NCBI GenBank assembly: GCA_018266105.1 | Contig: JAFEBA010000018.1 | Coordinates: 7,258-71,257 of the forward strand | Length of the DNA: 64,000 nucleotides | Reading direction: 5' to 3' | Source of the DNA: a bacterium | GTDB lineage: Bacteria > Vulcanimicrobiota > Xenobia > Xenobiales > JADMJV01 | In this document: positions 10,077 to 38,637 of the stretch, piece by piece | Position numbering within the stretch: the stretch's first letter is position 1 | Layout: every line of letters starts with the position of its first letter | Made by a program: the position numbers and the translations under genes | Notes under the pieces: generated by a model | What the model saw: only the letters and a program-made list of their open reading frames with translations | What the model was told of the DNA's origin: nothing | Databases searched by the model: none

Positions 10077-12775
10077 CTGAGTTCCTCGCGAAGCCGGGCG
10101 GCCAGGGTCCAGAGAGCCTTTTCGTCCGGGGGATAGGCCCAGTTCAGACGTTGCTGCAGCTGGTCGGGGGAGATCTGCTGCAGCGGCCTGGGGTCGATCA
10201 GACGCCAGATGGTCAGCTCTTCGTTGCTGGCCACTGCCAGCCGGCTGCGCCGACCTTCGTAGGCATACTCCTGGAGCCAGGAATCGCGCAGGCTTAACAG
10301 CAGCTCGCCGCTCCGGGCTTCCCAGAAGTCTCCATTGCAGCCCAGCAGGCTGTGTTGGTCCTCGAGTAGCAGGCTGATGTTACCGGTGGCTTCGGGGGCT
10401 CGGTAGGAACGACAGACCTGATCGGGGGCCTGGCTGAGCACTACCTCGCCGTAGGAGCTGGCGGCCGCCCACCAGTTGCCGGACGGTGAGCAGGCCTGGT
10501 GGCGCACGTAGAGATGGGTGGGTTGGCCTCGCAGCGTCCATTCCGAATTGCGGTTTTGGATCGGACGGGGTTTGCCATCTTCCCAGTCCAGCCAGCGGTA
10601 CTCGAAGAAGGCCCCGCGCTGGTCGATTTGCAGGTCGCCGCCCGGGTGTTTGAGCTTCCGACACCAGCCGGACCGACCGTCCTCTCGATGGTGCAGAGCC
10701 AGGCACCGGTCTTCATGGGAGGGGCCGCTGAGAACCGCAATCCAGCCGTTGGGTGGAAAATAGAACTGGATGTGCTGATGGGGATGCTTCAGGCGAGTGG
10801 ACCAGAGCATTTCGGTCAGGGCGGCGTCCCAATACTGCACACGGGTGCGGGTGGCCAGCACCAGTCCCGGGCCGCGGGGGTCGGCGGCCAGGGCCACCAG
10901 ATCCGGCCAGTCCCGCCATTGGCGCTCGAAGAAGAGGCGGCTGGCGCGCGCGCCAATGATTGCGAAATCCACTCGGCCCGGGCAAAGGGCGATGTTCTGC
11001 CGGTGCCGCTCGGGCCTGATTTCGGCCAGCAGCTCGGGTTGCAGGGCGCGCAAAGCGGGCTCCAGCAGGTCCTCCCAAGGGCCGGGCAGATCCTTGAGCA
11101 GCGGCAGCGAGCGGCGCAACGGCAGGCGCGGCAGTATGCTGCGCAGTTGCTGAGGTTGGATCCGGCTGAGCAGCTCGGCCCAGTCCGAGGGTGAAAAAGA
11201 GCCGACCTGAGGATTCTCCCAGCGGTTGATGAGTGACAGTTGCTGTCGCTGCACCAGCTGCTGGCGCAGGCGTCGGGCCTGCTCGGGCTGGAGTTGTTCC
11301 AGCAGAGGTCGCAGGTCGCCAGCCGGTTTGCCTTCCAGCCAGTCCAGCAGCGGCAGCCAGGCTTCAGGCCAGGGGTGGCGGCGCAGGCCGGCCACCAGAC
11401 CGGGACGAGGCTGGTCGACGAGCAGCAGTGCCAGGTTTTGGCACCAGGCCGGCGGCAGTTCTTGGGAAAGCAGTTCAAGCAGGGGTTCATCGTCGGGGCA
11501 TTCCAGCAGCCCCGGCCAAATTCGTCCGGGTGGAAAATGAGCCAGATCGTGCCAGCGGCGCTGGCTCACGGCGGCCCAGACCCATTGGCGATGGTCCCGG
11601 TAGGGCTGGCAGTCGGAACTCAAAGAGCGAAGTTCAGGATGCCGACGACTGAGGGCAAAGAGGCACTGACTGCGGTAGGGGCGCACCCGCGGCCAGCAGG
11701 CCTGCAGCAGACCGGCCGCATCGCCCGACGGAGAGTTGCGGCGCAGGCGTTGGTAAAAGTGAACTTCATTGCCCAGGCAGCACACCAACCAGCGGTCGTT
11801 GGGGCTGACCGCCACCCGGCAGTGGCCCTCGTTGGGGGACCGGAAAAACTGCAGCAGCCGGCCGCTGGCGCTGGAGTAGACGGCCAGACCCTCTTGGCAG
11901 ACGGCCAGCACCAGCCGTCCGTCACGGCTGGCGGTGAGATTTTGTCCGGAGTGGGTGCGCAGGCAGGCTCCAAAATCTTGCATCAGGCTGCCGTCTTCCA
12001 GCGACCAGCGCGTGAGCTTGGAGCCGGAAGCAACCAGGAGTTGTTGTTGTCCGGGCAGGTGCAGCCAGGAGGGGGATGGGCCGGCCACCTCCTGGGCTCG
12101 GGCCAGCACGCGGCCGTCCTCCCAGGCGTGGTAGGTCCAGTTGCTCTGAGGGCACCCAAGAACGTAGCCGGCTGCACCGCGGGCGAAGGCGGTGAGGTCC
12201 TCGGGCAGGGGCGCCAGCTCCAGGCCATCCTGCAGCCGATAGAGGCCGGAGGGGCTTTTGAAACGGCTAACCACCACCGCTTCGGATTCGGGCAGCTGGC
12301 CCATGATCTTGTAGCCCCGGGATTGCCAGACCAGCTGGCCGCTGCCGAGGTCAAAGAAGAGGATGTTATCATTTTGCCAGATGGCCAGCCGCTGGCCGAT
12401 CGCCCACACCTCGGACAGGTATTTGATCTCAGGGCTGGCCGCAAAGCGGCGGTGGGGGCGGTGGCGACTGAGGTCCCAGAGCTGCCAGTGTTGGTCTCGG
12501 GTGGCCAGCATGCGGTCGGGGCCGGTCAGCCAGCCGCGTTGGAAATCCAGCTCCACCGGGGTGGCTTCGGGCAGGTCCCAGAGCAGGTTGCCGGTCAGGG
12601 CGTAGTCATCCTCCAGGCTGAGCTGCCAGGTGAAATCGCCGCTTGGGGTCCAGAGGCGCTGGGCGCACAGTTCATAGGCGTCCTCATATTCAGGCGCAGC
12701 CAGCCAGGCGGCTGCCTCTCGGGTCTGGCCGGCCAGTTGCAGCAGTTGACCAAGGTCGCGGTGCCAGTCGCTCAT
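10073..12775 (-). CDS. Very large hypothetical protein (about 900 aa from MSDWHRDLG…), Trp-rich with beta-propeller-like repeat motifs. Middle gene of the operon.
   Basis: The track ORF 10073..13162 begins with 129 Arg/Pro/Ala-rich codons overlapping the upstream gene. Trimming to Met130 gives an ATGA overlap at 12772..12775. Blade-like motifs are visible (…DGRLVLAV…, …SPNDRWLVCC…, …LAIWQNDNILFFDLGSGQLVW…). Confidence 0.6.
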   Translation of the reverse strand: MSDWHRDLGQLLQLAGQTREAAAWLAAPEYEDAYELCAQRLWTPSGDFTWQLSLEDDYALTGNLLWDLPEATPVELDFQRGWLTGPDRMLATRDQHWQLWDLSRHRPHRRFAASPEIKYLSEVWAIGQRLAIWQNDNILFFDLGSGQLVWQSRGYKIMGQLPESEAVVVSRFKSPSGLYRLQDGLELAPLPEDLTAFARGAAGYVLGCPQSNWTYHAWEDGRVLARAQEVAGPSPSWLHLPGQQQLLVASGSKLTRWSLEDGSLMQDFGACLRTHSGQNLTASRDGRLVLAVCQEGLAVYSSASGRLLQFFRSPNEGHCRVAVSPNDRWLVCCLGNEVHFYQRLRRNSPSGDAAGLLQACWPRVRPYRSQCLFALSRRHPELRSLSSDCQPYRDHRQWVWAAVSQRRWHDLAHFPPGRIWPGLLECPDDEPLLELLSQELPPAWCQNLALLLVDQPRPGLVAGLRRHPWPEAWLPLLDWLEGKPAGDLRPLLEQLQPEQARRLRQQLVQRQQLSLINRWENPQVGSFSPSDWAELLSRIQPQQLRSILPRLPLRRSLPLLKDLPGPWEDLLEPALRALQPELLAEIRPERHRQNIALCPGRVDFAIIGARASRLFFERQWRDWPDLVALAADPRGPGLVLATRTRVQYWDAALTEMLWSTRLKHPHQHIQFYFPPNGWIAVLSGPSHEDRCLALHHREDGRSGWCRKLKHPGGDLQIDQRGAFFEYRWLDWEDGKPRPIQNRNSEWTLRGQPTHLYVRHQACSPSGNWWAAASSYGEVVLSQAPDQVCRSYRAPEATGNISLLLEDQHSLLGCNGDFWEARSGELLLSLRDSWLQEYAYEGRRSRLAVASNEELTIWRLIDPRPLQQISPDQLQQRLNWAYPPDEKALWTLAARLREELR

Positions 12776-14964
12776 GACTGCTCCTGGAGGGCCTTGAGCC
12801 AGGCCCGCAGGCGCTCGGGGAGATATTGGTCGGGCTGCGGGGGAGACGAGTCTTGCAGCGGCGAGAACTGCAGCTGGCCGTCTTGCAAGGCCAGCAGCCG
12901 GTCGGGGGCGAGCACGCAGGTCTCGGGAAGGCGGCCCAGCCGCTCGGGCCGGAGCGCGTCCAGCAGCCAGGCTTGCTGGCCGATGGTGACCCGAGCGTAG
13001 CCGTGGCGGGCTTCTTCCAATTGGAGGTCTTCGGCCTCCAGGCGGCCGAGTTCGCGGCCTTCCTGCAGGCTGTAGAGAGCCTGGCTGCCCTGCACGATCA
13101 GACGCGGGCCGTCCTGCACCACCCGGCGCACGGCCGAGAGGTTGCAAAAGCGATGGACGCAATCTCCGGTCTGGGGATCAAACAGGCTGACCGTGGCGTG
13201 CAGGCCCAGCAGAATGGTGCTGCCCAGGCGGTCCAGGCAGCCGGCCGCCAGATAACCGTCGTGAAAGCCGACCCAGCTAACCTGACCGTCCTGTTCGGCC
13301 TGGCAGAGCTGGCCCAGGGTATCGGCTTCCCAGATCTGGATTTTCTCTTTGTGGGTGGTCGCCAGCCAGCGGCCGTCCGGACTCCAGGCCAGAGTCTGGC
13401 GAGCCCAGCTGCCTACGAATACGGGTCCTCTTGAAATAACGGGCTCGGGAAGGTCGGTGGAGCCTAGCAGGGCGGGCTGGTTGCGGCGCAGGCAGAGCAC
13501 CCGCAACTGCTGGCCGTGGGCGTGAGCCAGGCGGGTGGCGCAGGGGGAGAGCGCCAGCGGGCCTTCGGCGATGGCCTGACTCCAGAGGGTGCGACCGCGG
13601 GCGTCGCAGCAGCTGAGCTGGCCGTGGTGACGCAGCAAAAGGCCTTGAGGGAGAAACCAGATTTGTTGAGGTTCTGAGTCCGTCTTGCACTCTCCCAGCA
13701 GGCACAGTTCGGGGTAGCTCCAGATTTGCAAGCGTTTCTCATTCCAGAGCAGCAGCCGGTCGGATTGGGGGCTGAGCTGTAAGGAGTGGGCCGGGGTTTC
13801 CATGAGGCTGTCCCATCGGGGCACAAAGCATCGGATGGGAGCGCCGTCGAGCAGCTTGAGCAGGCGATGAAAGAGGGGCCGATTGTGGCGAGGTTGCCAG
13901 CCGCTTTCGGCCAGTTTCAGCAATTGCTCAGAAGCCTGTCCCGCCGGCAGGGAGCGCAGAGCCTGCCAGCTCACTTCCGGGTTGTTGGCCAGCGGGTCGT
14001 CCAGGCCTCGGCGCTGGAGTTCCTCTTGGACAGGCCGGGAGAACTGGCCGTCGTGCTGCAGCTCCTGGAGTTCCTCGCTGGGAAAGTCTTGCAGACTTTG
14101 ACCTTGGGCCAGAGCCAGCAGCACCCGCAGGCCGGGTTGGTGGGTGGTCCAGCCGCGCTTGAGCCAGTGGCGACGCAGTTGGGGCTGGCGAGTTTGGGCC
14201 CAGAGCCAGAGAATGGAGCCGGGTTCGCCGGCCAGGGCGGCCAGGATCTGGGAGTGGTATTCCGGATAGTGGCGAGCCAGTTCCAGCAGGCCGGCGGCCA
14301 GACGTCCAGGCGGCTTCGGAATTCGATCCCATTCGTTGATTTTGGCGCGCAAGAGCAGGCTCAGGGCGACTTGAAAAGGGAGCCCGACCAGCTGGCGGCA
14401 GGCCAGCTCGCGCCAGTTGGGCTGGCCCAGGTAGTCCAGCAGGCGGGCGGGGGGCAGGGGGCGCCCAGAAAGCAGGCAGCTCTCTGCCCAGCCGGGCTGG
14501 CCTTCCGCCGGTAGCCAGCCCAGGTCCTGCACCAGCTGGGCCAGCTGGGCTGGACAGTCGGGGCTGGCGCTGTGGCTCAGCATTCGGTCGCGCTCGGGGG
14601 TTGGATGGCTGAGGCAGTCCAAGATCTCGGAGTAGTGGTGCTCGAGTTGATGGATGATCAGTCGGTCGGCCCCGCTTTGGAGAAGGCGCTGCCAGGGTGG
14701 GCGGCCCCAGGGGCTCAGGCGATCCAGTCGGCCGGCCTCAAGCTGCTGGCGGGCGGCCAGGCTGGGGGGGCAAAAGGAGCCGGTTTGAAGGGCCTGGAGA
14801 GCGGTGGAGGCGGCTTCGGGGGGCATCCAGCCAAGGGATTCAAACAGCCAGTCCCAACGGGCCTCGTCTCTCCAAAGGGTTACGACGTCGGTCCAGCTCA
14901 CTGAGCCCGCTTCGACGGCCTTTGGGAACCCGCCTGCGGTGCCCAAAGCACCCTTTGGAAACAT
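12772..14964 (-). CDS. Large hypothetical protein (730 aa) with C-terminal WD40/beta-propeller-like motifs. First gene of the operon.
   Basis: The long ORF has WD-like segments (LAWSPDGRWLATTHKEKIQIWEADTLGQL; SPQSDRLLLWNEKRLQIWSY). Its stop overlaps the next gene's ATG. Confidence 0.6.
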   Translation of the reverse strand: MFPKGALGTAGGFPKAVEAGSVSWTDVVTLWRDEARWDWLFESLGWMPPEAASTALQALQTGSFCPPSLAARQQLEAGRLDRLSPWGRPPWQRLLQSGADRLIIHQLEHHYSEILDCLSHPTPERDRMLSHSASPDCPAQLAQLVQDLGWLPAEGQPGWAESCLLSGRPLPPARLLDYLGQPNWRELACRQLVGLPFQVALSLLLRAKINEWDRIPKPPGRLAAGLLELARHYPEYHSQILAALAGEPGSILWLWAQTRQPQLRRHWLKRGWTTHQPGLRVLLALAQGQSLQDFPSEELQELQHDGQFSRPVQEELQRRGLDDPLANNPEVSWQALRSLPAGQASEQLLKLAESGWQPRHNRPLFHRLLKLLDGAPIRCFVPRWDSLMETPAHSLQLSPQSDRLLLWNEKRLQIWSYPELCLLGECKTDSEPQQIWFLPQGLLLRHHGQLSCCDARGRTLWSQAIAEGPLALSPCATRLAHAHGQQLRVLCLRRNQPALLGSTDLPEPVISRGPVFVGSWARQTLAWSPDGRWLATTHKEKIQIWEADTLGQLCQAEQDGQVSWVGFHDGYLAAGCLDRLGSTILLGLHATVSLFDPQTGDCVHRFCNLSAVRRVVQDGPRLIVQGSQALYSLQEGRELGRLEAEDLQLEEARHGYARVTIGQQAWLLDALRPERLGRLPETCVLAPDRLLALQDGQLQFSPLQDSSPPQPDQYLPERLRAWLKALQEQS

Positions 14965-15969: not shown

Positions 15970-16557
15970 TTAGGACCTGGGAGCTGGAGCGCCGCATCGG
16001 CCGCAGAAGCGGTGGTCAGGCTCCAGCCTGGCTCTGCAACCAGGACACAGGCGCTCCAGTGGGGTGCCGCAGTGAATGCAGTAGCGGCTTTGTGGCTCGA
16101 CGGTGCGGGCGCAGTGGTGACAGTGTGGGGCGCTTGCGCCCGGACGGGCCCAGGCCAGCTCCAGCGGCTCCAGTCTGACCAGCCAGCTCTGGGCTCCCTG
16201 AAGAAGCTGCAGCTCGTTGCTGGAGCTGAGTTCAAAGATTCGCTCACCGCCGCAACCGCTCCAGGTGCCGCAGAAGAAGGCCCCCCTGGCGTCCTGGCTG
16301 AGGCTGAGGTGATCCTCTCCCTGACTGTTGTGCAAAGCCAGAATTCCGCCAGGTTCAAAAGGGCAGGGCGTCCAACGGCCCTGCCAGTGCGAGCCCTGGG
16401 AGGCGGAGACGCCCACCAGCTGGGCCAGAACCAACAAACCCTCTCGGATAGAGAGGGCGTTCGCCTGCTCCAGGCCCCGACAGAATGCATCCAGGGCCCG
16501 GGCCTGTTGGGGGCTGACTTGACGCGGTTGGCTTTCAAGGGGTTGGGTGCTGTTCAC
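15970..16557 (-). CDS. Double zinc-ribbon domain protein (195 aa).
   Basis: The C-terminus reads CHHCARTVEPQSRYCIHCGTPLERLCPGCRARLEPDHRFCGRCGAP, i.e. two CxxC…CxxC ribbons. It overlaps the upstream gene by 23 nt. Confidence 0.6.
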   Translation of the reverse strand: MNSTQPLESQPRQVSPQQARALDAFCRGLEQANALSIREGLLVLAQLVGVSASQGSHWQGRWTPCPFEPGGILALHNSQGEDHLSLSQDARGAFFCGTWSGCGGERIFELSSSNELQLLQGAQSWLVRLEPLELAWARPGASAPHCHHCARTVEPQSRYCIHCGTPLERLCPGCRARLEPDHRFCGRCGAPAPRS

Positions 16558-19339
16558 GCCAGTCCTCCAAGAATCGCTGTCGCGGCAGGTAGCCGTAAAG
16601 GGCGTGAGATTCGGAGATGCCCTCCTCGGGTTGATAGTAGCGGTAGCCCACGGATGGATCGTAGCGATAGTCGGGGCCGGTATCCAGCTCCACTCCCTCC
16701 AGTTGTCGGGTCAGAAGTTCTGAAATCAGGTCCAATCCGGGGGCCACCGAAAAGCCCAGACTCGCCAGCAGGGTGCGCAACACCACATGGGCGCCGCGTC
16801 CGCTGGCCGTCAACCAGTATTTCCAGCGCAGGAGAAAGCGCCGTTCTCTTTCGTTGCTGTAGAGTCCATCGGGGTGCAGATACTGGTCCTCCCGCCAGTG
16901 CTGTTCCCACCAAGGGTCCAGACCCCGTGGGTCCTGCATGGGGTCCATGCCCGAGAGGAAAATGCCGCTCCAGGCGTGGATGAAGCCAAGCCGGTAGTTT
17001 TCAAACTCGATGGCGTTCATGCTGCTGACCACACCGATCCGGTCGGGGCTTCCGGCCCGGTAGTGGCGTCGGGAGCAGAGCCATTTGCAGATGCGATTGC
17101 GCAGTTCGGAGCAGACGAAGAGGCGGTAGAAGCGGTCCTGGGGTTGGTTGGTGTCGTGGCCGGAAAGAGCGAGGGTTACGTTCCAGAGCGGTCCGCGCAA
17201 GGCCGGCACCAGGTGCAGCAGGGCCAGGCCGACGGCCGAGGCGGTTTGCAGGGTTTGCAGATAAGGGCCGTTTCCAAAACATGGATTCGTCAGCTTTAGC
17301 TGGCCTTCCTCAGCCATCAGGTCTTGCAGCAGGCGGCTGAGGTTGGCGGCCACCTCCAGGCTGAGCGTCAGCGCCGGGCTCTCTTGTTGGTTCGGGCTTT
17401 CCACTTTGAGGGCTAATTGGAAGACGGTTTGGTCGTAGTTGCTCCAATCCAGGCCTGTGTAGGTGAGAACGAACTGGCAGGACCCATCGGGTCCGGTTCT
17501 GGCCTGATTGATGGGCGGGTCCAGGCGGGCCGTTCCGCTCGTCTGGATCTCCAGCCGGAGTTTGCTGTCGGCCAGAGTCTGGCTGGAGTCACCGTGCAGG
17601 AAGAGCAGGCACCAGGCTTCGCTGGTGGCGCGTTTCAGGCCGGGCACCAGCCAGCAGCGCAGGTCCAGGAAGCGTGGTTTGAGAGGCTGGTCGCGCAGCA
17701 GAGGCTGCTTAAGGTAGTTGGCGGGAGCGCTGGCCGAGGTTTCCACCTGCAGATGCAGGATGAGTTCTTGAGAGCGGCGCTCGGGGGCGTCCAGCAGGGG
17801 TTTGGGGGTAAGAAAGGTGAGCAGTTGCCCGCCTTCCTCCAGGCTTTGCGGGGGCAGCCAGTCAAATCCCGGCAGGGCCTCGCCCTGCAGTTTCCATTCC
17901 CAACTCCACCACTCGGGTCGCACCAGCTGGATCAGTCCGATCTCTCGCGTTCCAGGCTTGTCGCTGCGGCAGCAGGCCAGGGCCAGCTGGAGCTGATCCT
18001 CGCCGTCGGTCACCAGCTCGAAGCCTTCCAAAGTCAGATTGCGATAAAAGCGTTGGCAGGGGTCAGGCCAGCCCTGGAGGATCATCTCCAGTTGCGGTCG
18101 GACGCGATAGGACACAGTGGCGGTATAGATCTGACCGTCGGCAGCGCCGATTTTGAGGGTGGCCTGGATGCAGCCGTCGTGGTCGGCCAGGTCCGGGCCC
18201 AGAAAGGTTTCCAGGTCCAGTGGGGCGACCCGCAGGGTCAATTGACCGGGGCCTTGCTGGAGAAACTCCTTGAGCTCCAGAGCGGGGGGCTTAAATTGCA
18301 GGGTGGTGTTACCCGCATGAATTGGAAATCCAGGTTCGATTGGATGGTCTGGTTGGCCGGGCTGATGAAAGCAGGCGATGATCTCGGCAAAATCCCAGCC
18401 CTGGCGATAGAGCACGTCTTGACTGGGGTGGCCGCGGACCCAGGCGCTGAGCACCAGCTGGGGTGGAGTCAGGGTCACCTGAACCTGGGCGCTGGTCCGG
18501 GCCAGACCGGCCACGGCCGTGATCTGAAGTGGGGGGGGCTTTTGTTGGCCTGTCAGCAGCACCTGACAGGTCAGGCTGCCCTGGCCCTGGGCCGGTTGAG
18601 CTTGCAGACCGGGCGGGGCCTGAATGGAGATCAAAGCATCGGGCGCGGCCACAGGTCCGGCTGCAAGGTCAATCCTCCAGGCCGTAATGGTAAGCCCGGT
18701 GCTTTGTCCGGGCGCCAGCTGCAGCGAATCGGAGCTCAACTGTAGGGCGTAGCGTGGGGGATCGTTCTTTGGGTTTTGGCGGGTCTTGAGCTGTCGCCGG
18801 GCGATGGCCACCACGGCCGCTGCTCCTAGAGCGCCGGCTCCGACCACCAGCGTCCAGTCGGGAAGCGAGGACTGACCCGGAAAACCCGGCCGGCAGCCGG
18901 GAAAGAGGTGGGTCAGATAGTCGTCGCGTTCCTGAGCGCTGGCGAAGGCCTGTTCGACCGGAAAGGGTCCCTGCTGGGTGACGCGCTCGGGATTGGTCCA
19001 CTGGAAGGATCCGAAGTTCCAGACTTTCCCCATGGAGTTAAGTCGGCAAAAGCCGTAGCGGGTGGTGGGCGGCTGCTGGCACCGCACTTTCAGGCAGGCC
19101 ACCACGGCGCTGGCTTGGACCGGGTCAGGTATGCGAGGGTCGTGCAGCTTGCGCAGTTGCAGCTCAGAGACCGTCAGGGATTCCCCGATTTCTTGGGATA
19201 GGGTGGGCTGACGGTTCTTCCAGGCGGTCTGGATGTCGGAATCGGTGGGCATGCCCAAGGAGGGCAACCACCAGGGGTCGGCCGCGGCCGCCCAGGTCCA
19301 AGCCAACCAGAACCACAGCAGCACGAGTCGCCTGAGCAC
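16535..19339 (-). CDS. Large single-pass membrane protein (934 aa): signal peptide, extracytoplasmic domain of about 150 aa, one TM helix, and a cytoplasmic domain of about 740 aa. Function unknown.
   Basis: N-terminal MLRRLVLLWFWLAWTWAAAADP, then a hydrophobic stretch WTLVVGAGALGAAAVVAIARRQLKTR. The rest is protein-like with no recognised family. Confidence 0.6.
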   Translation of the reverse strand: MLRRLVLLWFWLAWTWAAAADPWWLPSLGMPTDSDIQTAWKNRQPTLSQEIGESLTVSELQLRKLHDPRIPDPVQASAVVACLKVRCQQPPTTRYGFCRLNSMGKVWNFGSFQWTNPERVTQQGPFPVEQAFASAQERDDYLTHLFPGCRPGFPGQSSLPDWTLVVGAGALGAAAVVAIARRQLKTRQNPKNDPPRYALQLSSDSLQLAPGQSTGLTITAWRIDLAAGPVAAPDALISIQAPPGLQAQPAQGQGSLTCQVLLTGQQKPPPLQITAVAGLARTSAQVQVTLTPPQLVLSAWVRGHPSQDVLYRQGWDFAEIIACFHQPGQPDHPIEPGFPIHAGNTTLQFKPPALELKEFLQQGPGQLTLRVAPLDLETFLGPDLADHDGCIQATLKIGAADGQIYTATVSYRVRPQLEMILQGWPDPCQRFYRNLTLEGFELVTDGEDQLQLALACCRSDKPGTREIGLIQLVRPEWWSWEWKLQGEALPGFDWLPPQSLEEGGQLLTFLTPKPLLDAPERRSQELILHLQVETSASAPANYLKQPLLRDQPLKPRFLDLRCWLVPGLKRATSEAWCLLFLHGDSSQTLADSKLRLEIQTSGTARLDPPINQARTGPDGSCQFVLTYTGLDWSNYDQTVFQLALKVESPNQQESPALTLSLEVAANLSRLLQDLMAEEGQLKLTNPCFGNGPYLQTLQTASAVGLALLHLVPALRGPLWNVTLALSGHDTNQPQDRFYRLFVCSELRNRICKWLCSRRHYRAGSPDRIGVVSSMNAIEFENYRLGFIHAWSGIFLSGMDPMQDPRGLDPWWEQHWREDQYLHPDGLYSNERERRFLLRWKYWLTASGRGAHVVLRTLLASLGFSVAPGLDLISELLTRQLEGVELDTGPDYRYDPSVGYRYYQPEEGISESHALYGYLPRQRFLEDWREQHPTP

Positions 19340-19384: not shown

Positions 19385-19816
19385 TCAAGCGGCCTGGCAT
19401 TCCTCCAGCAACTGGTCCACGCGCTGGGCGTGGTCTTCGATCAGCTCGAGGGTGGCGTTGGCGAAGGCGGCACCCCCGGCTTCCAGTTGCCCCAGCAGGG
19501 TGTCCACGGTCCCGGCCAGTTCCACATAGACCTTGGCCGAGGCGGCGATGACGGGGCTGTCACCCAGGGCGTGGAGCTGGTCGGCCACACGCCAGATGCC
19601 GTCCAGGAAGCGTTCGCAAAAGTTGAGCAAGTCGTCGCTGATGTCTCCGTAGGCCACGGCGCTTTCCACTCGCTGGCGCAGTTCCATAACCTTGGCCCGC
19701 ATTGGTTTAGGACCATTGCTCTGGACCCGTTCGTCCACGGTCAGGTCGAGTTGGCCGCTGGGGTTGGCCAGAAACTGGTTTCGGCGAGCCATTTGCTTGA
19801 AGAGTTCGAAGTTCAC
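19385..19816 (-). CDS. Small all-helical hypothetical protein (143 aa), translationally coupled (ATGA) to the upstream papain-fold protein.
   Basis: Its ATG overlaps the stop of 19813..20925. Helical composition, no signal peptide. Confidence 0.5.
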   Translation of the reverse strand: MNFELFKQMARRNQFLANPSGQLDLTVDERVQSNGPKPMRAKVMELRQRVESAVAYGDISDDLLNFCERFLDGIWRVADQLHALGDSPVIAASAKVYVELAGTVDTLLGQLEAGGAAFANATLELIEDHAQRVDQLLEECQAA

Positions 19817-20925
19817 TGGGCCTCCGCGCTTTTGGGTCGATAGACTTTGACATCCGGCAGGTGGTTGTAGGGACCAATTTCGGAATACTCAATGGTCGGG
19901 TTCTTGGCCCGGTCATCGTAGGTGCCCCAGCGGTCATTGGCGGCGTTGTAGACCCACTTGCGTCGGTCCACCCCACCCACTTCGTTCTGGGCGCTGCGGG
20001 TTTTCCAGTCGCCGCCGGCGCCCCAGGAGGAGTCGAGGGTGTAGACATGCACCTCGGCATTGTGGCCGGACCCCTGCCAGAATTCGTTTTTGGAATTGTG
20101 CAGCTTGGCCACTTTGTCGGCGCTCATGGTGGTGTGGTCGTAGACCGAGACCCAGTGGCCGGCTTCACCGGGGCTAGGGTCAGTGAGACGGATGATATCT
20201 CCGGCTCGGGCCCGGATCGGTTTGCCCGCCTGTTGCGGCACGCGGCTGAACTGTTCAGGCGAGAGGCTTTGCTGCAGGGAATCGCCGTTGCGGTTGACTC
20301 CGCCCAGGCCCAGGTCGCGGCCGGCGGCTTTGCTGGCCGCCTGGGCCACGTAGCCGGCGCAGTCGCTGCCCAGACCGAACTCCCATTGGAGCTTGCGAAC
20401 GCGGGCCGAATCGGTGGTATGGTCGCCGCTGGCGGGTGGGAGCTTGCCTGCGTCGATGAGGGCCTGGGTGACCAACTTGAGTTGTTCGGGAGTGGCTCGG
20501 CCCATGCCAGCGGCCGAGGCGGCCGAGCGCAGGGCCGGGTTCTGTTTGATTTCCGGTAAGGCCTCGCCGACCTTCGCCATGGTGTTGATCCGGCCCTTAG
20601 AGGGTTCTTTTCCCTCAGGGTCACTGAGGCCGCCTTCCATTTGGAACTGGGGAAAGACTTTGACGGTGCGTGGGGCCTCGCCGGGAGTATCGGACGGAAT
20701 GGTGTAGGTCGAGCGCATGCTGTTGCGAAAATCGTCCAGCCGGGCCTGGGTCACTTTCTTGTCGTAGGGGGGCACCACCGGAGCGGTGGGAGCCGTGCCA
20801 ACCAGTCCGCCCAGCGCTTCGTTGGCCGCCTGGCGCAATCTTTCGAAGGGATTGAAGCCGGCGCTCTGAGTGGCCTGGAGGCGCTGGACCGGAGAGGTTC
20901 GCTGTTCTGTGTTGATGACCGCCAT
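19813..20925 (-). CDS. NlpC/P60- or CHAP-like (papain-fold Cys/His) domain protein with a disordered N-terminal region of about 190 aa. No signal peptide.
   Basis: …GSDCAGYVAQA… and, about 60 residues later, …GDIIRLTDPSPGEAGHWVSVYDH…. Spacing and context match the NlpC/P60 catalytic Cys and the GD…(G)HVGIY His motif. Confidence 0.5.
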   Translation of the reverse strand: MAVINTEQRTSPVQRLQATQSAGFNPFERLRQAANEALGGLVGTAPTAPVVPPYDKKVTQARLDDFRNSMRSTYTIPSDTPGEAPRTVKVFPQFQMEGGLSDPEGKEPSKGRINTMAKVGEALPEIKQNPALRSAASAAGMGRATPEQLKLVTQALIDAGKLPPASGDHTTDSARVRKLQWEFGLGSDCAGYVAQAASKAAGRDLGLGGVNRNGDSLQQSLSPEQFSRVPQQAGKPIRARAGDIIRLTDPSPGEAGHWVSVYDHTTMSADKVAKLHNSKNEFWQGSGHNAEVHVYTLDSSWGAGGDWKTRSAQNEVGGVDRRKWVYNAANDRWGTYDDRAKNPTIEYSEIGPYNHLPDVKVYRPKSAEAQ

Positions 20926-21332: not shown

Positions 21333-21893
21333 TCAGCGAGCCACCAGGGCTTCCCGGTCCAGAATTTGGTTGAGAGTTTCAAAAAAGAAGCGGTCGTACT
21401 CGGTTCCGAGGCTGGCCAGCAATCCCAGAAGATGTTGGCAGGAGGCCTCGGCCGCCTTTTTGGGGTTGCTGAAGGTGGCTTCCAGGTCCAGCATTTGTTT
21501 GTAAATGGGCTTGAGGGCCTCGATCATCTGGCGCGGAGGCAGGCGGCGGTTGCTGTGGTAGCCCACCAGCCTTCCGTCAGCGGCGTAACTGGGGGAGACA
21601 TGGGCCAGCACCCAGTAGTGGCAGCCGTCCTTGGCCAGGTTGAGCACGATCGCGAAGACTTCGTGGCCCGCGGCCAATCGGTCCCAAAGGAGTTTGAAGG
21701 CGCCTCGAGGCATGTCGGGGTGGCGGATGATGTTGTGAGGTTTGCCCAGCAGTTCGTGCTCTGGGTAGGCGGCGATTTTGCAGAAGACGCGGTTGGCGTA
21801 AGTGATAATGCCTTTGGGATCGGTCTTGCTGACAATCACTTCTTCGGGTTGGAAGACCCGCTCAATTCCATTTGGGATGACCATACTGTTCAA
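21333..21893 (-). CDS. PAS-domain sensor protein (Aer-like PAS, 186 aa).
   Basis: TDPKGIITYANRVFCKIAAYPEHELLGKPHNIIRHPDMP…KDGCHYWV is the typical PAS pattern found in Aer-type sensors. Confidence 0.75.
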   Translation of the reverse strand: MNSMVIPNGIERVFQPEEVIVSKTDPKGIITYANRVFCKIAAYPEHELLGKPHNIIRHPDMPRGAFKLLWDRLAAGHEVFAIVLNLAKDGCHYWVLAHVSPSYAADGRLVGYHSNRRLPPRQMIEALKPIYKQMLDLEATFSNPKKAAEASCQHLLGLLASLGTEYDRFFFETLNQILDREALVAR

Positions 21894-21942
21894 GTCGGCA
21901 GACTGGGCCAGAGCTTAAGCGCGCGGGGCGCGCGGGCGCAAC

Positions 21943-21966
21943 AAAAAAGCCCCGTTTCCGGGGCTT
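21943..21966 (-). terminator. Rho-independent terminator for the minus-strand gene 21990..22472.
   Basis: The reverse strand reads GCCCCGGAAACGGGGCTTTTTT: a GC-rich hairpin plus a T-tract, immediately downstream of the gene's stop. Confidence 0.6.
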
Positions 21967-21989
21967 TGCGTCAGCCTGGGGGATCGGGT

Positions 21990-22472
21990 CTATCGGGCCA
22001 CCAGGAATTCACCGGTGCATTTGGGGATACCGAAGTCGTCGGTCTGGGGCTGGCCGTCCACCATGACCAGCATATTGGATCCGATCATCCACTGGCCATT
22101 GTCGTGGATGGCGTTGAGGTAGGCGGGCGCGCCGTTGAAGACGGTGGCCATCTCAAAGGACTGCTTGTCACCACCGGTTTTGTGAATCAACACGGTCTCG
22201 GGACCGTCGCCGCAGGCCTCCAGGCTCTGGTAGGGCTTGCCCTGGAGGGCCGCCGCGGTGAGTTTGAGACTGCCTTCGGCCGGGTCATCGTCCATGCCCG
22301 GCTTGTTGTCCAGGCCGCTGATGCGCTGGACTTCTTCCAGGTTGTCGCGCAACGAGATGAACTGCATCAGCTCCATCTCCGGGCCGTGCTTCTCAGCTCC
22401 TTCGCCCAGGCTGCCGGTTTTGCGAAACCGATCGAATGCGTTTTGTACAGGTGCGGGAAGTTGGATTTTCAT
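21990..22472 (-). CDS. Hypothetical protein (160 aa).
   Basis: ORF with protein-like composition followed by its own terminator. Confidence 0.5.
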   Translation of the reverse strand: MKIQLPAPVQNAFDRFRKTGSLGEGAEKHGPEMELMQFISLRDNLEEVQRISGLDNKPGMDDDPAEGSLKLTAAALQGKPYQSLEACGDGPETVLIHKTGGDKQSFEMATVFNGAPAYLNAIHDNGQWMIGSNMLVMVDGQPQTDDFGIPKCTGEFLVAR

Positions 22473-22567
22473 ACTGCCTCCGAAACGATGTGTGTCTGTG
22501 TTCTATTTGTGTAGGCTGTAGTGTAGCGGGGGCAGGTGGCAAAAAGGTGATTTGATTCGAGCGTTTG

Positions 22568-23200
22568 TTAAAAGATTTTTACCGGGTTGGGCATGATTGG
22601 GACAAGACCCTGTTGGGCGGCGCTGTTGATCAATTGGCTTCGGTCCAGGGTGCCAAAAGTCTGGAAGAGTTCGCGTAGTTCCGCTTTGATGGTGCTGCAC
22701 GAGTAGTGCAGGTGGGCGGCGATTTCCTGGTTGGTTTGGCCCTGGGTCATGCCGCGCAAGATGCGCATCTGACGCAACGAGATGTAGCGTTCTTTGCGAC
22801 GCGTGCTGCGCATGGGTGCGGGCTGGCTGACCACGGCCTGAATGGCGGCCATCAGTTGGTGGGCGTCGTTTTCTTTGCTGATCATGGCGCTGGCACCGGC
22901 GCGCATGAGGCTGTGGTAGCTGAGCTGGCTCCAGTTGGGTGTCAGGGCCAGCACCGGCAGTTGCTGGTCCAACTGGCGCAGGCTGTGCAGGACTTCCAGC
23001 CCGGATTGGTCCATCAAATTGAGGGAAAGCAGCAGCAGCGAGGGCTGCAGGCTTTGGATCAGCTCCAGGCAGTGGCTGCCGGAATCGGTTTCGGCCACCA
23101 CCGAAAAACCCTGGCCGGTGAGCAGCCGTGCCAGGCCGGCCCTGAAGAGGCGATGTTCGTCGGCCAGCACCACCCGGGTGAGGCACCTCGGTGGGTTCAT
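22568..23200 (-). CDS. Two-component response regulator, NarL/FixJ (LuxR-type HTH) family.
   Basis: N-terminal receiver domain (VVLADEH…) and a C-terminal LuxR HTH (…LRQMRILRGMTQGQTNQEIAAHLHYSCSTIKAELRELF…). Confidence 0.85.
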   Translation of the reverse strand: MNPPRCLTRVVLADEHRLFRAGLARLLTGQGFSVVAETDSGSHCLELIQSLQPSLLLLSLNLMDQSGLEVLHSLRQLDQQLPVLALTPNWSQLSYHSLMRAGASAMISKENDAHQLMAAIQAVVSQPAPMRSTRRKERYISLRQMRILRGMTQGQTNQEIAAHLHYSCSTIKAELRELFQTFGTLDRSQLINSAAQQGLVPIMPNPVKIF

Positions 23201-23829
23201 ATGGCGTCCTTGAAGAGCGGATGTCTTTCCCGGGGTTGGGTCACCAGGCCCTGGATGGCAGCTTCGCAGGCCAGGTGGGTGCGGTCGGCGCAGCCCAGAG
23301 TCTGAAAGAGGGCGTTAATTTCCATTTTGACGGTGCCGCGCGAGATGTGCAGGTGGGCGGCGATCTGATCGTTGGTCAGGCCGTAAACCACCCCCTCCAG
23401 AATGCGCTGCTGGCGGGAGGTGATGTGACCGGTGCACTCGCGGGCGATGCCGGGAGTGATATAGCGGCCCCCGCCAACCACCAGACGCACGGCTTCCATC
23501 AGTTCTTCGGGGCTGGCGTTCTTGGATAGGAAGCCGTTGGCACCCGCCTCCACCGAGCTTTTGAGACGGAAGGCGGTGGCCGCGCCCGTCACCACCAGAG
23601 TGGGCACGGCCCAGCCCTGAAGGCGCAAGGAACGCAGCACCTGGACCCCGTCCATGTCCGGCAGGGCCAGGTCCAGGATCAAAAGATCGGGCCGATGGCG
23701 TTCGATCAAATCGAGCGCCTCGGCCCCGTAACTGGTTTCAGCCACCAGGTCCACACCCAGAGGGGTGAGGATACTGGCCAGGCTGGCACGCACCAGACTC
23801 TGGTCTTCTATCAGGATGGCGCGGATCAA
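23197..23829 (-). CDS. Two-component response regulator, NarL/FixJ family. ATGA overlap with the downstream paralogue.
   Basis: Receiver motifs (ILIEDQ…LLILDLALPDMDG) and a LuxR HTH (…LTNDQIAAHLHISRGTVKMEINALF…). Confidence 0.85.
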   Translation of the reverse strand: MIRAILIEDQSLVRASLASILTPLGVDLVAETSYGAEALDLIERHRPDLLILDLALPDMDGVQVLRSLRLQGWAVPTLVVTGAATAFRLKSSVEAGANGFLSKNASPEELMEAVRLVVGGGRYITPGIARECTGHITSRQQRILEGVVYGLTNDQIAAHLHISRGTVKMEINALFQTLGCADRTHLACEAAIQGLVTQPRERHPLFKDAI

Positions 23830-25119: not shown

Positions 25120-25692
25120 ATGGCTGTCGCTACCCTCACTCCTTTCGCTCCGGTCTGGAATCCCAACTGGTCGGCCCTACCCGCCAATCAGGCGGCCGAA
25201 GGCGGAGATGCGGGACCGGTCAGTGAGCCGGGCGACTCGGTCAGTTTGAGCGGATTGGGACCAAGGCTGGCCCAATCCACTTTGGAGGCAGCCGCCTGCA
25301 ATCAAGATTTGAGTCGGCAGCGTTGCTATCATTTCGTGAAAGAAGGCCTGGCGGCCGAAGGCATTGAGTTGACCGGCAAGCCCGCTTATCTGGCCGCCAA
25401 TCAGCTGGCCCGCAATCCGCATTTCCAGGAAGTGCGAGTCCCCCGCGATGAGCTGGCCGATCTGCCCGCCGGCGCGGTGGTGGTGTGGAATCGGAACGTC
25501 AAGGCGGGTCATCGCAACGGCCACATTTCGGTGGCTCTGGGGGATGGTCGCGAGGTCAGCGACCGCATTCGGCCCCAAGTGACCAATTATCGTTCACAGT
25601 ATCGAGTTTTTCTCCCTGAAGGAGCCACACTGGTGGCTCGTAACGGGGATTCGGCCGCCAGCGGCCTGCCGGCGGGTGGCGTGGTCGGCTAA
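25120..25692 (+). CDS. NlpC/P60-like papain-fold domain protein (190 aa), no obvious signal peptide.
   Basis: …RCYHFVKEGL… (catalytic Cys context) and …GAVVVWNRNVKAGHRNGHISVALGDGREVSD… match the GDLVFF…HVGIYLGNG pattern of NlpC/P60. Confidence 0.5.
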   Translation: MAVATLTPFAPVWNPNWSALPANQAAEGGDAGPVSEPGDSVSLSGLGPRLAQSTLEAAACNQDLSRQRCYHFVKEGLAAEGIELTGKPAYLAANQLARNPHFQEVRVPRDELADLPAGAVVVWNRNVKAGHRNGHISVALGDGREVSDRIRPQVTNYRSQYRVFLPEGATLVARNGDSAASGLPAGGVVG

Positions 25693-25707: not shown

Positions 25708-28700
25708 ATGAGAAAGACTCTTCTGGCCGCCCTGCTTTGTGGCGCCGCGGCCTGGGCTTTACCTGAGGGCGGGCAGGTGATCCAGGGCAATCTTCAGATG
25801 ACCCAGCCCTCGGCCAACATTCTGCAGATTTTACAGTCCAGCCCCAGCGGAATTATCAACTGGAATTCGTTTAGCATCGATGCTCATCAGTTGGTGCAGT
25901 TTCTCCAGCCCAATTCGGCTGCGGCCGTGCTGAATCGGGTCGTGGGGCCGGAGCCGAGTCAGATTTTAGGGCAGCTGCAGGCCAACGGCCGGGTGCTTTT
26001 AATCAATCCCAACGGAATTTTATTTGGACCTGGAAGCGTGGTGGATACCGGCAGTTTCCTGGCCTCCACGCTCTCCATTACGGATTCGGACTTTCTACAG
26101 GGACGCTATAATTTGCAGTGGGATCCCAATACGCCCATGCGGGCGGTGGTCAACCAGGGTGAAATTCGCGTGGCCGACGGGGGTTTTCTGGCGCTGGTTT
26201 CGCCGGTGGTGGACAATCAAGGCTTGTTGGTTGCCCAGGGGGGTCAGGTGGTCTTGGGGGCAACCCGCCAGGCCAGTCTGACGTTGGACGCGCGCGGTTT
26301 GTTGACGGTGGTCATGCCGGACGGTTTTCGAGGACAGAGTTCGGGCCCGCCGGAAACGGTGCTTTTGTCGCAGAACCAGATGAGCGACGCGCTGGCTCAC
26401 GTGGTGAGTCTATCCAAGCAGGCCGAATCGATTGTGGAGACACCCCAGGGAATTCGGTTGGCCGGGGCCGAGGGGCTATTACTGCATCAGGGTGAGATTC
26501 GTGCCCAAGAAGTGCGTATGGATTCCAGTCAGGCCACTTTGCTGGATGCCGACAGCCTGGTGAGCGGCTCGGACCTTCGCATTTTCTCGGCGGGATCGGC
26601 TGTCTCCATGGGGCTTTTGCAGGCTGACTTTGTGGAGCTGAGCGGGGCCAGGGTGAGTCTGACGCGGGCTCCAGAGCTGGCCACGGGTGGGGTCCTGTTG
26701 TTGGATCCGAATAACATTTTTATTCGCGATACCGGCATCGGGCCGGATGTTACCCTGAGCACTTCGCCAGGAGTGGACGTGGATGTGCAGGCCAGCGCCT
26801 TGAACGTGACGGGCGGGGTCCTGCTGCAGGCGGATCAGGATATTTCGGTCGAGGTTCCCATCAACATCGACCGCAATACGCAGTTGCGCCTGGACGCGGG
26901 GCGAAATATCGTGATGCAGCCCGGCACTTCGGTCAATATGACCGATTCGGCAGCAGTTTTTACGGCCAACGCCACCGGGGCCGTGGATGTGCGCGAGCTG
27001 ACGGTCCCAACCGTGCATGTCAATGCCGGCACGTTCGCGCGTTTTGATGGAGGCACGGTGGGGGTGGCGGGCTTGCCCACCCTGGTCAACGTGACGGCTC
27101 CCAGCGTGCGCATCGCCACCGGGAATATCACCAATGTGGTGGGTACGGATGTAAATGTGACCTTTACGGCCAAACCCGCCGCTATTCCGGACGTGGGTTT
27201 GGAGCCAGATTCGCGGCTGAACGTGCTGGGCAGCAACTCCAACAATGTGACTCTGGCGGCCCCGGGTGGCAATGCCTTTCTGGACAGTAACGCCAATCTG
27301 GCGACCAGCAATGTACTCAGCCAGGTGATGGTGAGCGGGGCCAATGTGAATATGGTGACGGGCAGTCGCATCAGCGAGCCCAATGCGGGATCCACACTGG
27401 CTATCAATTCGGTCGACAAGAGCTCGCTGACCAGTTTGGAAGTCCCAAATGTGAATCTGCACGCGGGCAGCTTCATTCAGTTTTTGGGCGGGACGCTGGG
27501 CCAGGCCGCCAGCGACACGCTGATCACGGCCCTGGCGGATACGGGCGTGGTGACCGTGTTCGCCAATCGTCAGGTCGAGGTGGTGGGCCAGAACGCCCGC
27601 CTGGATATGACTTCCACCGGTGCCAATCTGAGCTTTGCCGACAATTCCACCCTGAATTTAAACGGTTCGACCAGCAATCGGCTGAACGCCACGGCCGGGG
27701 GCAATGAGGTTTACATCGGTCAGCAAACCCGCATCAATGCTCAAGGCCCGGCCCAACTGAACTTCAATGCGCCGGCCAGCTTTGTGGTGCAGCGCAATGA
27801 TGGGTCTATCAACATCAATGGCGCTGGCAATGTGAGCATGATGGCGGCCACCAATGTGGTGGTGCAGCCCGGCAGTAGCATCACCGCCTCGCGTTTTGAC
27901 GCGGGCGCGCAGAATGTATCCTTGGAGGGCACAGCCAACGTGCCGGTAGTCAACGCCACCGCCACGGCCCTGGGAGATTTGACTCTTAGCGGACAGGTGG
28001 GTCTGGCTGGTCAGCCCTTGCTCTACACCACCTCCGGCGGAGGCGTGTTTTTACACGACCTGACGCTCCAGGCCAGTCAGGTGGACTGGACCTTGAATTC
28101 CAGCGCGCGCAACATTGAAGTGACCTTGGGAACAGTGCTGGTGGGCGGCTCCAACAACCAGGTCAGCTGGACCTCCAATGCCTTTTTTGCCTTTGACGCC
28201 AACACAGTGGTCAGAGCGGACGGAGCCAGCCGCTTCAATTTTGTGTCCACCACCTCACGTCCAATCATGTCGGCCAACAGTACCATTTCCGCCACCGACC
28301 CGGCTTCCAGCCTTGCCTTTGCCAGTCCCTTTTCGCCTCAGCTGAACCGGGTGGTTTCGGGCGGTCAGCTGACGGTAGTGGCCACCGGTGGGGCGGGGTT
28401 GAACATCACCGACCAGCTGGTGGGCAATCAGGTGAACTTGTCTACCCCGGGCCGTTTGCTGGACGCCCGCACAGACAGCACGCCGGCCATTGTGGCCAGC
28501 AGTTTGCTGAACGTGACAGCGGCCAATATCTCGGGTCCGGTGGATGTGCCCGAAGCGGGTTTGGTGAGCGCACTGGTCTTCGCCACCGGTTCCGGGGCTC
28601 AGGTGCGCTTCAATGTGACGGGTCCCAACAACACCACCCTTGGCAATCGGGCCGCCAACCTGTTTTATGCATTTCCTCAGAGCAGCGACGTGCAGATCGT

Positions 28701-29130: not shown

Positions 29131-29718
29131 CTACTTTTTATACAGGGCCATATAGTCGAAGATGACTTTGCGCCCGGCCGGCCGGAGATCTTGTTTGAGC
29201 TGCTTGTCGGCGAAGACCGGGGCCACGTAGCTCCACAGCGAGGTGCGGCCCCCAAAGTTCTTTTGCGCTTCAATGAGTTCGGTGACGATGGCTACGGTGA
29301 AGCTGGGGCCGAGCTTGCGGCGGGCCTGTTGAGCCAGGGCCAGGGCTCCGTCCACGTGATTGTAGTCGTCCAGCGCGGTGAGGTAGGCCAGGCAGAAGCG
29401 CTCTTCAGGATTGAGGCGCTTCTGGATTTCAGCCGGGTCGGTGGTCTTGTATTTCTGTGCGAGGATCTCCAGGAAGAGTTTGGCGTTCTCTTTGTTGTTG
29501 ATGTTCCAGCTCAGGGCGTTGATGACGGCCGCCTTTTTGTCGATGGGGGCTTTGGAGGTCAGGTAGATTCCCAAACGAGTGTTGAGGCGCTCAATGTCGT
29601 GTGCCATCACCACTTCGGGGACGTCTTTGTAGGAGGTCCAGAAATCGGTGGAGGTGAGGGGAGAATCGGCCCAACCGCAGGTGGGGGCCAGCATACACAG
29701 CAACAGAAATTTCTTCAT
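29131..29718 (-). CDS. Secreted or lipoprotein-like hypothetical protein (195 aa).
   Basis: N-terminal MKKFLLLCMLAPTCGWA: signal peptide with a Cys near the cleavage site. Confidence 0.55.
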   Translation of the reverse strand: MKKFLLLCMLAPTCGWADSPLTSTDFWTSYKDVPEVVMAHDIERLNTRLGIYLTSKAPIDKKAAVINALSWNINNKENAKLFLEILAQKYKTTDPAEIQKRLNPEERFCLAYLTALDDYNHVDGALALAQQARRKLGPSFTVAIVTELIEAQKNFGGRTSLWSYVAPVFADKQLKQDLRPAGRKVIFDYMALYKK

Positions 29719-38239: not shown

Positions 38240-38592
38240 AGGATTCCGGTCAGCTTGAATCCTGAGGGGTCTTTGCGGAAACGGAAGCGGCCCAGGAAGT
38301 AGTGGCTGCCCTGGCGCCGCGGCCTGAGTCCTTGCAGTTGAGGGTGCTGGCCGGCCATGGTCACCAGGAAAGCCTTGCGGAAGGCGGCTTGTTGGGTGGC
38401 GCTGAGCTGGCCGTAGTGGGGCAGGTCAGGGGCTTTGCGGACTTCTAGCGCAGACCAGTCGATTTGTTGCTGGGCGGCGGGCCGGCCCCGAAAAAGATTG
38501 TCCAGCACGCTTCGCATTTCTTTTTCTTGGCCCAGGGTTTGGCCCGAGCAGGTCCGGTAGAGCAGCCAGGTGAGCAGCAGAGCTCGGTGCAT
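38236..38592 (-). CDS. Small hypothetical protein (118 aa), possibly exported.
   Basis: ORF convergent with 37679..38239 (4-nt overlap). N-terminal hydrophobic stretch MHRALLLTWLLYRTCSG. Weak evidence. Confidence 0.3.
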   Translation of the reverse strand: MHRALLLTWLLYRTCSGQTLGQEKEMRSVLDNLFRGRPAAQQQIDWSALEVRKAPDLPHYGQLSATQQAAFRKAFLVTMAGQHPQLQGLRPRRQGSHYFLGRFRFRKDPSGFKLTGIL

Positions 38593-38637
38593 TGGGTCAG
38601 ATTCTCCCTGGGGTTGGAGAAGGCCCGCTTCCTACCC

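Follow-up and report, generated by a model that had tools for sequence, protein, structure and literature searches.

Amidase effectors of type VI secretion systems (T6SS), as in the pairs Tae1/Tse1-Tsi1, Tae3-Tai3 and Tae4-Tai4, have no leader peptide and are countered by Tai or Tsi immunity proteins in the periplasm. Other described systems that come close to the locus studied here are the NlpC/P60 peptidases (MEROPS C40; E. coli MepS/Spr, B. subtilis LytE/CwlO), the CHAP endolysins of phages (LysGH15, PlyGRCS, Lys2972), the toxins associated with extracellular contractile injection systems (eCIS), and LytE-IseA, in which an NlpC/P60 endopeptidase is paired with a protein inhibitor (PDB 8i2f/8i2e). 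We analysed a stretch of 64,000 nt from a Vulcanimicrobiota genome (contig JAFEBA010000018.1, positions 7,258 to 71,257; hereafter the window), in which a gene for a putative papain-fold enzyme of 370 aa is overlapped at its end by a gene for a protein of 143 aa, here called the partner. We hold with moderate confidence that the enzyme is an exported, peptidoglycan-cleaving antibacterial effector and that the 143-aa protein is the cognate partner that neutralises it.

Set against the NlpC/P60 peptidases, the enzyme has neither signal peptide nor lipobox, scores below the PF00877 threshold, carries an extra conserved N-terminal domain of ~135 aa, and places its predicted third catalytic residue, an Asp, after a helical insertion of ~25 aa, whereas the canonical third triad residue of these peptidases follows the His by ~10–12 residues. 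Unlike the CHAP endolysins, it has no PF05257 match and a chromosomal, non-prophage context; a tblastn search returned 0 homologues from 50,697 phage and 72,556 plasmid records, and none was found when IMG/VR viral contigs were scanned with the family motif. The enzyme is twice the size of the Tae effectors, has a conserved domain in addition and shows no sequence similarity to them, being neither a compact single-domain amidase of ~130–200 aa nor a Tae homologue. Its partner is cytoplasmic and not periplasmic, no T6SS genes lie nearby in the window or at 37 family loci, and a signal-peptide immunity protein encoded next to the enzyme is lacking in the window, this feature occurring only in the unrelated partners of Myxococcota relatives. 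IseA is a secreted protein that does not fold as a helical bundle and whose gene is not coupled to another; no likeness of the partner to it in sequence or fold was found. As in polymorphic toxins, a C-terminal toxin domain is followed immediately downstream by a partner that varies by subfamily; a recognisable N-terminal trafficking domain (Rhs, PAAR, LXG, TPS/FHA, MIX and others) is lacking. A type II toxin-antitoxin system was also considered and rejected, the toxin being large and of hydrolase fold and its relatives having exported partners.

The gene pair and the predicted active site of the enzyme

Both reading frames lie on the minus strand where the original prediction had placed them (Table 1). 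It had also described the second gene as starting inside the stop codon of the first, and the 4-nt overlap is indeed there; the sequence given for it, ATGA, was wrong for the window, which reads GTGA. ATGA is the form of the orthologous overlap at two related loci (L003 and L004), the start codon being ATG or GTG at the same overlapping place. A Shine-Dalgarno sequence can be read before each start, GAGG for the enzyme and GGAGG for the partner, and every partner homologue, even one at 30% identity, begins with the invariant MNFxxFK, which validates the GTG start. Shadow open reading frames (ORFs) are common in the DNA of the window (GC content 60–66%). Comparison with orthologues on other contigs, from relatives 62–87% identical, gave ratios of non-synonymous to synonymous substitution of 0.07–0.28; at 73–87% identity they were 0.13–0.28 for the enzyme and 0.07–0.22 for the partner, and because of this purifying selection we regard both ORFs as genuine genes and not as shadow ORFs. 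A protein 100% identical to the enzyme carries the name 'hypothetical protein JST97_09335 [bacterium]'; homologues of the enzyme numbered 21.

The AlphaFold2 model of the enzyme, built on 22 homologues, has a mean predicted local distance difference test score (pLDDT) of 79.9 and a predicted template modelling score of 0.78, and its pLDDT falls below 50 only at aa 1–24, at aa 36–48 and in a loop at aa 101–106. The long disordered N-terminus that had been proposed did not hold up in this model: about 50 aa appear flexible, and aa ~51–185 form a folded, conserved accessory domain. The flexible segment is conserved among close relatives despite its low pLDDT and is a candidate export or loading signal. 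Within the accessory domain, which is present in nearly all of 150 listed family members, T153, Q154, L156 and D158 are 92–98% conserved (168 sequences). Residues 1–185 matched no Pfam or NCBIfam entry, and the domain is specific to this family. Matches of a profile to designed armadillo repeats in the PDB were rejected as spurious; they covered only the short QALIDAGxLP motif, and no stretch was significant alone.

The C-terminal part carries the two motifs on which the original prediction was based, DCAGYV at aa 188–193 and GDIIRLTDPSPGEAGHWVSVYDH from aa 242, and Cys189 and His257 are 68 residues apart. Cys189 and His257 are each kept in 166 of the 168 family sequences (99%), and G242 and D243 in all of them (100%). 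Position 298 is Asp in 163 of 168 (97%), Glu in 4 and His in 1; since these exceptions follow the expected substitution pattern, and from the order of strands in the predicted model, Asp298 is probably the third residue of the triad. Aligned with hhalign to E. coli MepS (E 2.8e-5), the enzyme profile places DCAGY on DCSGF and GD...GHWV on GD...GRHV. The model shows the alpha+beta fold typical of papain, in which the predicted nucleophile opens a helix that packs against an antiparallel sheet, and the Cys...His...polar triad follows the order of clan CA, so that the fold without which the original prediction would fall is present in the predicted structure. Relatives come nearer than the enzyme itself to the curated families: with E values of up to 1 allowed, 6 of 22 matched PF00877, the best of them at E 3.2e-4, and the best scores of the longer ones were 21.0 bits for PF00877 (cut-off 23 bits) and 18.1 for CHAP (cut-off 26). 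The assignment as a papain-fold Cys/His enzyme is supported; formal membership of a Pfam family is not.

By a Kyte-Doolittle heuristic, neither the enzyme nor the partner has a Sec- or Tat-type signal or a transmembrane helix. The highest mean over 19 residues reaches 0.86 in the enzyme and 1.12 in the partner, compared with 2.04 in the neighbouring 934-aa protein, and the leaderless character claimed for the enzyme was thereby borne out.

Partners and relatives across the family

The partner is helical, as it had been described: its model (mean pLDDT 74.9) consists of a four-helix bundle, a generic fold, and a 35-aa low-confidence tail, with no hydrophobic N-terminus. Despite its low confidence, the tail ranks with the best-conserved stretches of the partner and holds many invariant residues, a combination that is typical of a segment that folds upon binding. 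Partner homologues form 20 clusters, all from Vulcanimicrobiota-type contigs. In the window, as in 10 of 10 further places of this type (L003–L007, L046–L049 and one further contig), the enzyme gene is directly followed by the partner gene, which adjoins it at every close homologue examined, as the original prediction required. This overlap of 4 nt recurs wherever it was checked, in L003, L004, L005, L007, L046, L048, L049 and the further contig, and also in L047, which is cut upstream. The window, L003 and L004 differ in their flanking genes, and synteny around the pair is confined to one Vulcanimicrobiota sub-clade; the conserved unit is exactly the enzyme gene plus the partner gene. The two proteins are complementary in charge, with isoelectric points (pI) of 8.96 and 4.6. 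A profile of the partner had no PDB match beyond chance, and no likeness in sequence or fold to a known inhibitor or immunity protein was found; neither protein has a match in Pfam, NCBIfam, PHROGs or PADLOC.

The enzyme belongs to a larger family that is unnamed, is in no curated collection and has 'hypothetical protein' as its sole annotation. When 1.84 billion representatives of clusters at 50% identity were searched with a profile, 523 clusters matched with E no higher than 1e-3 and 297 with E no higher than 1e-30, mostly of 300–390 aa and matched across both domains. The family is found chiefly in Vulcanimicrobiota and Myxococcota. Transmembrane segments were seen in 0 of the 146 representatives listed, and a hydrophobic N-terminus in 1 of 146, which is ambiguous and possibly a truncated gene call. 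Scanning 185,579 GTDB species, one genome per species, with the family motif gave 37 loci, 3 of them in Vulcanimicrobiota, ~33 in Myxococcota (Polyangiaceae, Labilithrix) and 1 in a metagenome-assembled genome (MAG) labelled Actinomycetota.

The 143-aa partner is absent from the Myxococcota loci. In 21 of them the enzyme gene is followed by mutually homologous genes for proteins of ~300–430 aa, unrelated to the 143-aa protein, whose start mostly overlaps the enzyme stop. Each of the proteins has a signal peptide at its N-terminus, many with a lipobox (LSAC, LAAC, LVAC and similar), and the family has no Pfam or PDB match. Other lipobox proteins occupy the same downstream position in L026 and L036, and a signal-peptide protein does so in L032. 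Because a periplasmic partner is out of reach for an enzyme confined to the cytoplasm, the enzyme of these relatives must end up outside that compartment. Five paralogous pairs of enzyme and lipoprotein partner (L013, L014, L018, L019, L022) lie on four contigs of a single Polyangiaceae MAG, Emb289P4bin44; their partners are 59–71% identical to one another, which suggests an expanded arsenal. Export by 'hitch-hiking' through the twin-arginine (Tat) pathway together with the Myxococcota partner was considered and rejected, the signal peptides showing Sec and lipobox features and no twin-arginine motif.

Further relatives link the family to contractile injection systems. P0129 (E 1e-32) and P0154 (E 7e-27) carry an N-terminal eCIS_core domain (PF13699) with the whole family module at the C-terminus, and P0129 and P0197, a member of the P0154 cluster, are encoded directly beside operons for sheath, gp19 tube, Pvc16_N, AAA ATPase and baseplate proteins; L042–L045 are located at eCIS operons. 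Geller et al. 2021 (PMC8213781) report that toxins associated with eCIS can be recognised by a DUF4157 at the N-terminus joined to a toxin domain at the C-terminus, and P0129 and P0154/P0197 share this architecture. In contrast to such toxins, the window enzyme has no eCIS_core, there being no PF13699 match in it or its neighbours, and no eCIS genes lie in the 64 kb; its gene is followed by that of a dedicated partner, whereas beside the two eCIS-linked relatives examined no coupled partner gene was seen. In L045 (10001-12460) the eCIS_core-fused member that lies beside an eCIS operon is itself split by an IS1595-type transposase, and the C-terminal fragment of the hydrolase domain resumes ~1.2 kb on. 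A LysM domain occurs in one relative, P0096, and this fusion, together with the periplasmic partners of the relatives, links the family indirectly to peptidoglycan.

Effector and immunity, or another role

Under the reading that we favour, enzyme and partner would be translated together from one mRNA, probably in stoichiometric amounts given the coupling of their genes. The acidic partner, probably docking with its conserved tail, would bind the basic enzyme and keep it harmless, acting most likely as an immunity protein or as an inhibitor before export. The enzyme, with its flexible N-terminal leader and no Sec/Tat signal, would be exported or loaded by a machine encoded elsewhere, for which its relatives suggest a contractile injection system or a T6SS. 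In the target cell the Cys189-His257-Asp298 site would most likely cut the stem peptides of peptidoglycan. A flagellar type III secretion system was rejected as a route for the whole family, most of whose members are in Myxococcota that we take to be non-flagellated.

Several observations weigh against this proposal. A partner without a signal peptide could not guard the periplasm as Tsi and Tai proteins do, and for this reason the pair is not a textbook Tae/Tai pair. No T6SS, type VII secretion system (T7SS) or eCIS gene was found in the 64-kb window, where the original prediction had already remarked on the lack of the first two, or within 6 kb of the 37 family loci. T6SS components (Hcp/VgrG/PAAR, Tss) were absent from the ~40 window ORFs scanned and from the neighbours of the 37 loci, phmmer searches with 10 eCIS proteins returned nothing from the window or these loci, and no secretion-system family recurred among 111 ORFs neighbouring family loci. 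The pair is single-copy and lies in a stable syntenic chromosomal block in one Vulcanimicrobiota sub-clade, and both genes are under ordinary purifying selection, at similar rates and no faster than ordinary genes; in these respects it looks less like an arms-race cassette. The likeness to NlpC/P60 or CHAP enzymes, drawn from sequence in the original prediction, stood as regards fold, triad and alignment with MepS and failed in the formal searches: even with E values of up to 1 allowed, the enzyme matched no Pfam family, falling short of the gathering thresholds of PF00877 and PF05257, and Foldseek found nothing in the PDB at E <= 0.1 with its model. A PDB search with the single enzyme sequence gave chance matches only. 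Finally, a syntenic Myxococcota subgroup (L016, L020, L021, L024, L030, L033) has no coupled partner. As separate observations on this subgroup, L020, L024, L030 and L033 have instead, upstream and divergently oriented, a gene for a small exported protein rich in Lys and Glu, and the matches to acyl-CoA dehydrogenase among family neighbours (7 members) probably come from its flanks.

The effector-immunity layout proposed at the outset is therefore upheld by its relatives, with their exported partners, eCIS_core fusions and LysM domain, and weakened by the cytoplasmic partner and the failure to find a secretion apparatus in the window. We nevertheless favour an effector over a purely intracellular enzyme because of those relatives, some of which have exported or lipoprotein partners and some eCIS_core fusions beside eCIS operons. 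The role of the cytoplasmic partner may be to inhibit the enzyme before export, to give immunity to a toxin that hits cytoplasmic precursors as well, or to serve as a chaperone.

The last of these roles would leave the effector intact and make the 143-aa protein a chaperone or adaptor that holds the enzyme in an export-competent state or delivers it, with immunity encoded elsewhere, for example by an exported protein. The conserved helix in the disordered N-terminus of the enzyme would suit such a role, as would a 195-aa exported protein encoded near the pair in L005–L007 and L046–L049 and 8 kb from it in the window. We nonetheless think it unlikely. The partner gene is immediately downstream and overlapping, and the usual order is toxin then immunity gene, T6SS adaptor genes usually preceding the effector; the Myxococcota relatives do without any homologue of the 143-aa protein; and in L003 and L004 the 195-aa protein is not encoded in the vicinity of the pair, its closeness elsewhere being explicable by general synteny. 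We judge it similarly improbable that nothing is exported and that the enzyme is an intracellular housekeeping amidase or peptidase, acting, for example, on recycled muropeptides, gamma-glutamyl amides or acylated or otherwise modified protein under a regulatory inhibitor. The lack of an export signal in both proteins, the lack of secretion genes nearby, and the single-copy, syntenic pair under purifying selection are all consistent with that role, but distant homologues with the same invariant residues are coupled to signal-peptide or lipoprotein partners, which a cytoplasmic enzyme could not reach. Neither the eCIS_core fusions beside eCIS operons and the one LysM fusion, nor the sporadic distribution (3 Vulcanimicrobiota loci among the 185,579 species), nor the presence of up to 5 paralogous pairs in one Polyangiaceae genome fits a housekeeping function well.

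It is very improbable that the enzyme is an endolysin-like lysis protein that releases phage-like particles or eCIS, with the partner as a timing inhibitor. Endolysins lack signal peptides, relatives of the enzyme adjoin eCIS operons, and eCIS are released by cell lysis (PMC8213781), all of which would fit; against this, the phage, plasmid and viral-contig searches described above were negative, there were no PHROG matches, and the pair is flanked by neither holin nor prophage genes. Lipoprotein partners encoded by coupled genes, like N-terminal eCIS_core fusions, are, moreover, features of cargo toxins and not of lysis genes.

Surroundings of the pair and implications

The neighbouring genes in the window (Table 1) do not appear to belong to the unit. 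The 934-aa protein has no Pfam, NCBIfam or PADLOC match, and it and the zinc-ribbon protein were rejected as components, both being absent beside the pair in L003–L007. The 195-aa exported protein is encoded 0.1–3.5 kb downstream of the pair, on the opposite strand, in L005–L007 and L046–L049, homology being shown (77–80% identity) for L005–L007 only; a candidate homologue, matched by size, follows the pair in one further contig. This recurrence could be plain synteny or could point to a periplasmic third component.

Table 1. Coordinates of the gene pair, its parts and nearby features (window positions unless a locus is named; - marks the minus strand).
Feature	Position	Strand	Basis or remark
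Enzyme gene, 370 aa, 40 kDa, pI 8.96	19813..20925	-	ORF call; stop codon included
Partner gene, 143 aa, acidic, pI 4.6	19385..19816	-	ORF call
Stop/start overlap GTGA, 4 nt, translational coupling	19813..19816	-	GTG start 19816..19814, TGA stop 19815..19813
Shine-Dalgarno GGAGG of partner gene, within the end of the enzyme gene	19821..19825	-	4 nt before GTG; read from sequence
Enzyme N-terminal ~50 aa, low-confidence/disordered save a short amphipathic helix at aa 26-37 (FxxLRxAAxEAL)	20776..20925	-	AlphaFold2 pLDDT
Enzyme accessory domain, aa ~51-185, helices and small sheet, folded, strongly conserved	20371..20775	-	pLDDT mostly 88-97
Near-invariant VTQALIDAGxLP motif, aa 152-163, inside accessory domain	20437..20472	-	Conservation
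Enzyme catalytic domain, divergent NlpC/P60/CHAP-type papain fold, aa 186-370	19816..20370	-	AlphaFold2 model, MepS alignment
Codon of Cys189, predicted nucleophile, motif G-x-DCAGY	20359..20361	-	Aligned with the cysteine of MepS DCSGF
Codon of His257, predicted general base, motif GD-x12-GHWVSVY	20155..20157	-	Aligned with the histidine of MepS GRHVGIY
Codon of Asp298, predicted third triad residue, motif DSSWG, after helical insertion aa 267-290	20032..20034	-	Strand order in model
Partner N-terminal tail, conserved, aa 1-35	19712..19816	-	AlphaFold2 pLDDT < 50
Partner four-helix bundle, aa 39-142	19391..19702	-	AlphaFold2 pLDDT 81-94 per 10-residue block (aa 41-140)
934-aa protein, N-terminal signal-like segment, transmembrane helix near aa 162-180	16535..19339	-	Starts 45 nt after partner gene
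195-aa double-zinc-ribbon protein (PF12773), overlaps 934-aa gene	15970..16557	-	Pfam
Exported protein of 195 aa with signal peptide MKK...; mature form starts DSPLTSTDFW	29131..29718	-	No Pfam match; 8 kb from pair, convergent with TpsA-like gene
195-aa exported protein elsewhere	L005 7640-8230, L006 2017-2706, L007 10695-11294, L046 11369-11956		
195-aa exported protein elsewhere, continued	L047 2021-2608, L048 2685-3272, L049 8589-9182		

Other features of the window are recorded here for completeness. A second leaderless protein, of 190 aa (25120..25692, plus strand), has the motifs RCYHFV and GHISVALGDG and a weak CHAP match (PF05257, E 0.083). Its gene ends 16 nt before a gene on the same strand (25708..29127) for a TpsA-like exoprotein of 1139 aa with a TPS secretion domain (PF05860, E 1.7e-30), for which no TpsB partner was seen among the window ORFs scanned. 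Three consecutive large genes at 8268..14964 (minus strand) encode proteins of 730, 1029 and 602 aa with faint WD40/beta-propeller matches only, and this block is kept at 56–64% identity near the pair in the contig of the closest relative (L003 10019-16970). The window is also rich in signalling genes, with a 1608-aa GGDEF-EAL protein (38464..43290, plus strand), a second GGDEF protein (44164..45648, minus strand) and, at 21333..23829 (minus strand), a PAS protein and two LuxR/GerE-type response regulators, the latter encoded just upstream of the enzyme gene.

A broader proposal, which we put forward only tentatively and regard as doubtful, is that the pair represents a large family of leaderless NlpC/P60-like toxins in which the neutralising partner has been swapped, being a cytoplasmic helical bundle in Vulcanimicrobiota and a periplasmic lipoprotein in Myxococcota, and in which the nature of the partner implies either a cytoplasmic substrate or a new route of export or loading. 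If this were true, the substrate might be a cytoplasmic precursor such as UDP-MurNAc-peptide or lipid II, from whose cleavage producing cells would need intracellular protection; alternatively, the partner would double as inhibitor and hand-over factor in the new export or loading route. Cytoplasmic helical and periplasmic lipoprotein partners of one enzyme family would offer a clean test case, from which it might be learnt at what site such toxins act and by what means leaderless effectors are rendered harmless until exported.

Should the effector reading prove correct, the enzymes would constitute a new and fairly widespread family of antibacterial cell-wall effectors from scarcely explored soil and bioreactor lineages, Vulcanimicrobiota (Eremiobacterota) and Polyangiaceae/Labilithrix, with at least two new families of immunity or inhibitor partners and a new type of eCIS cargo. 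A profile of the enzyme family would improve the annotation of several hundred protein clusters.

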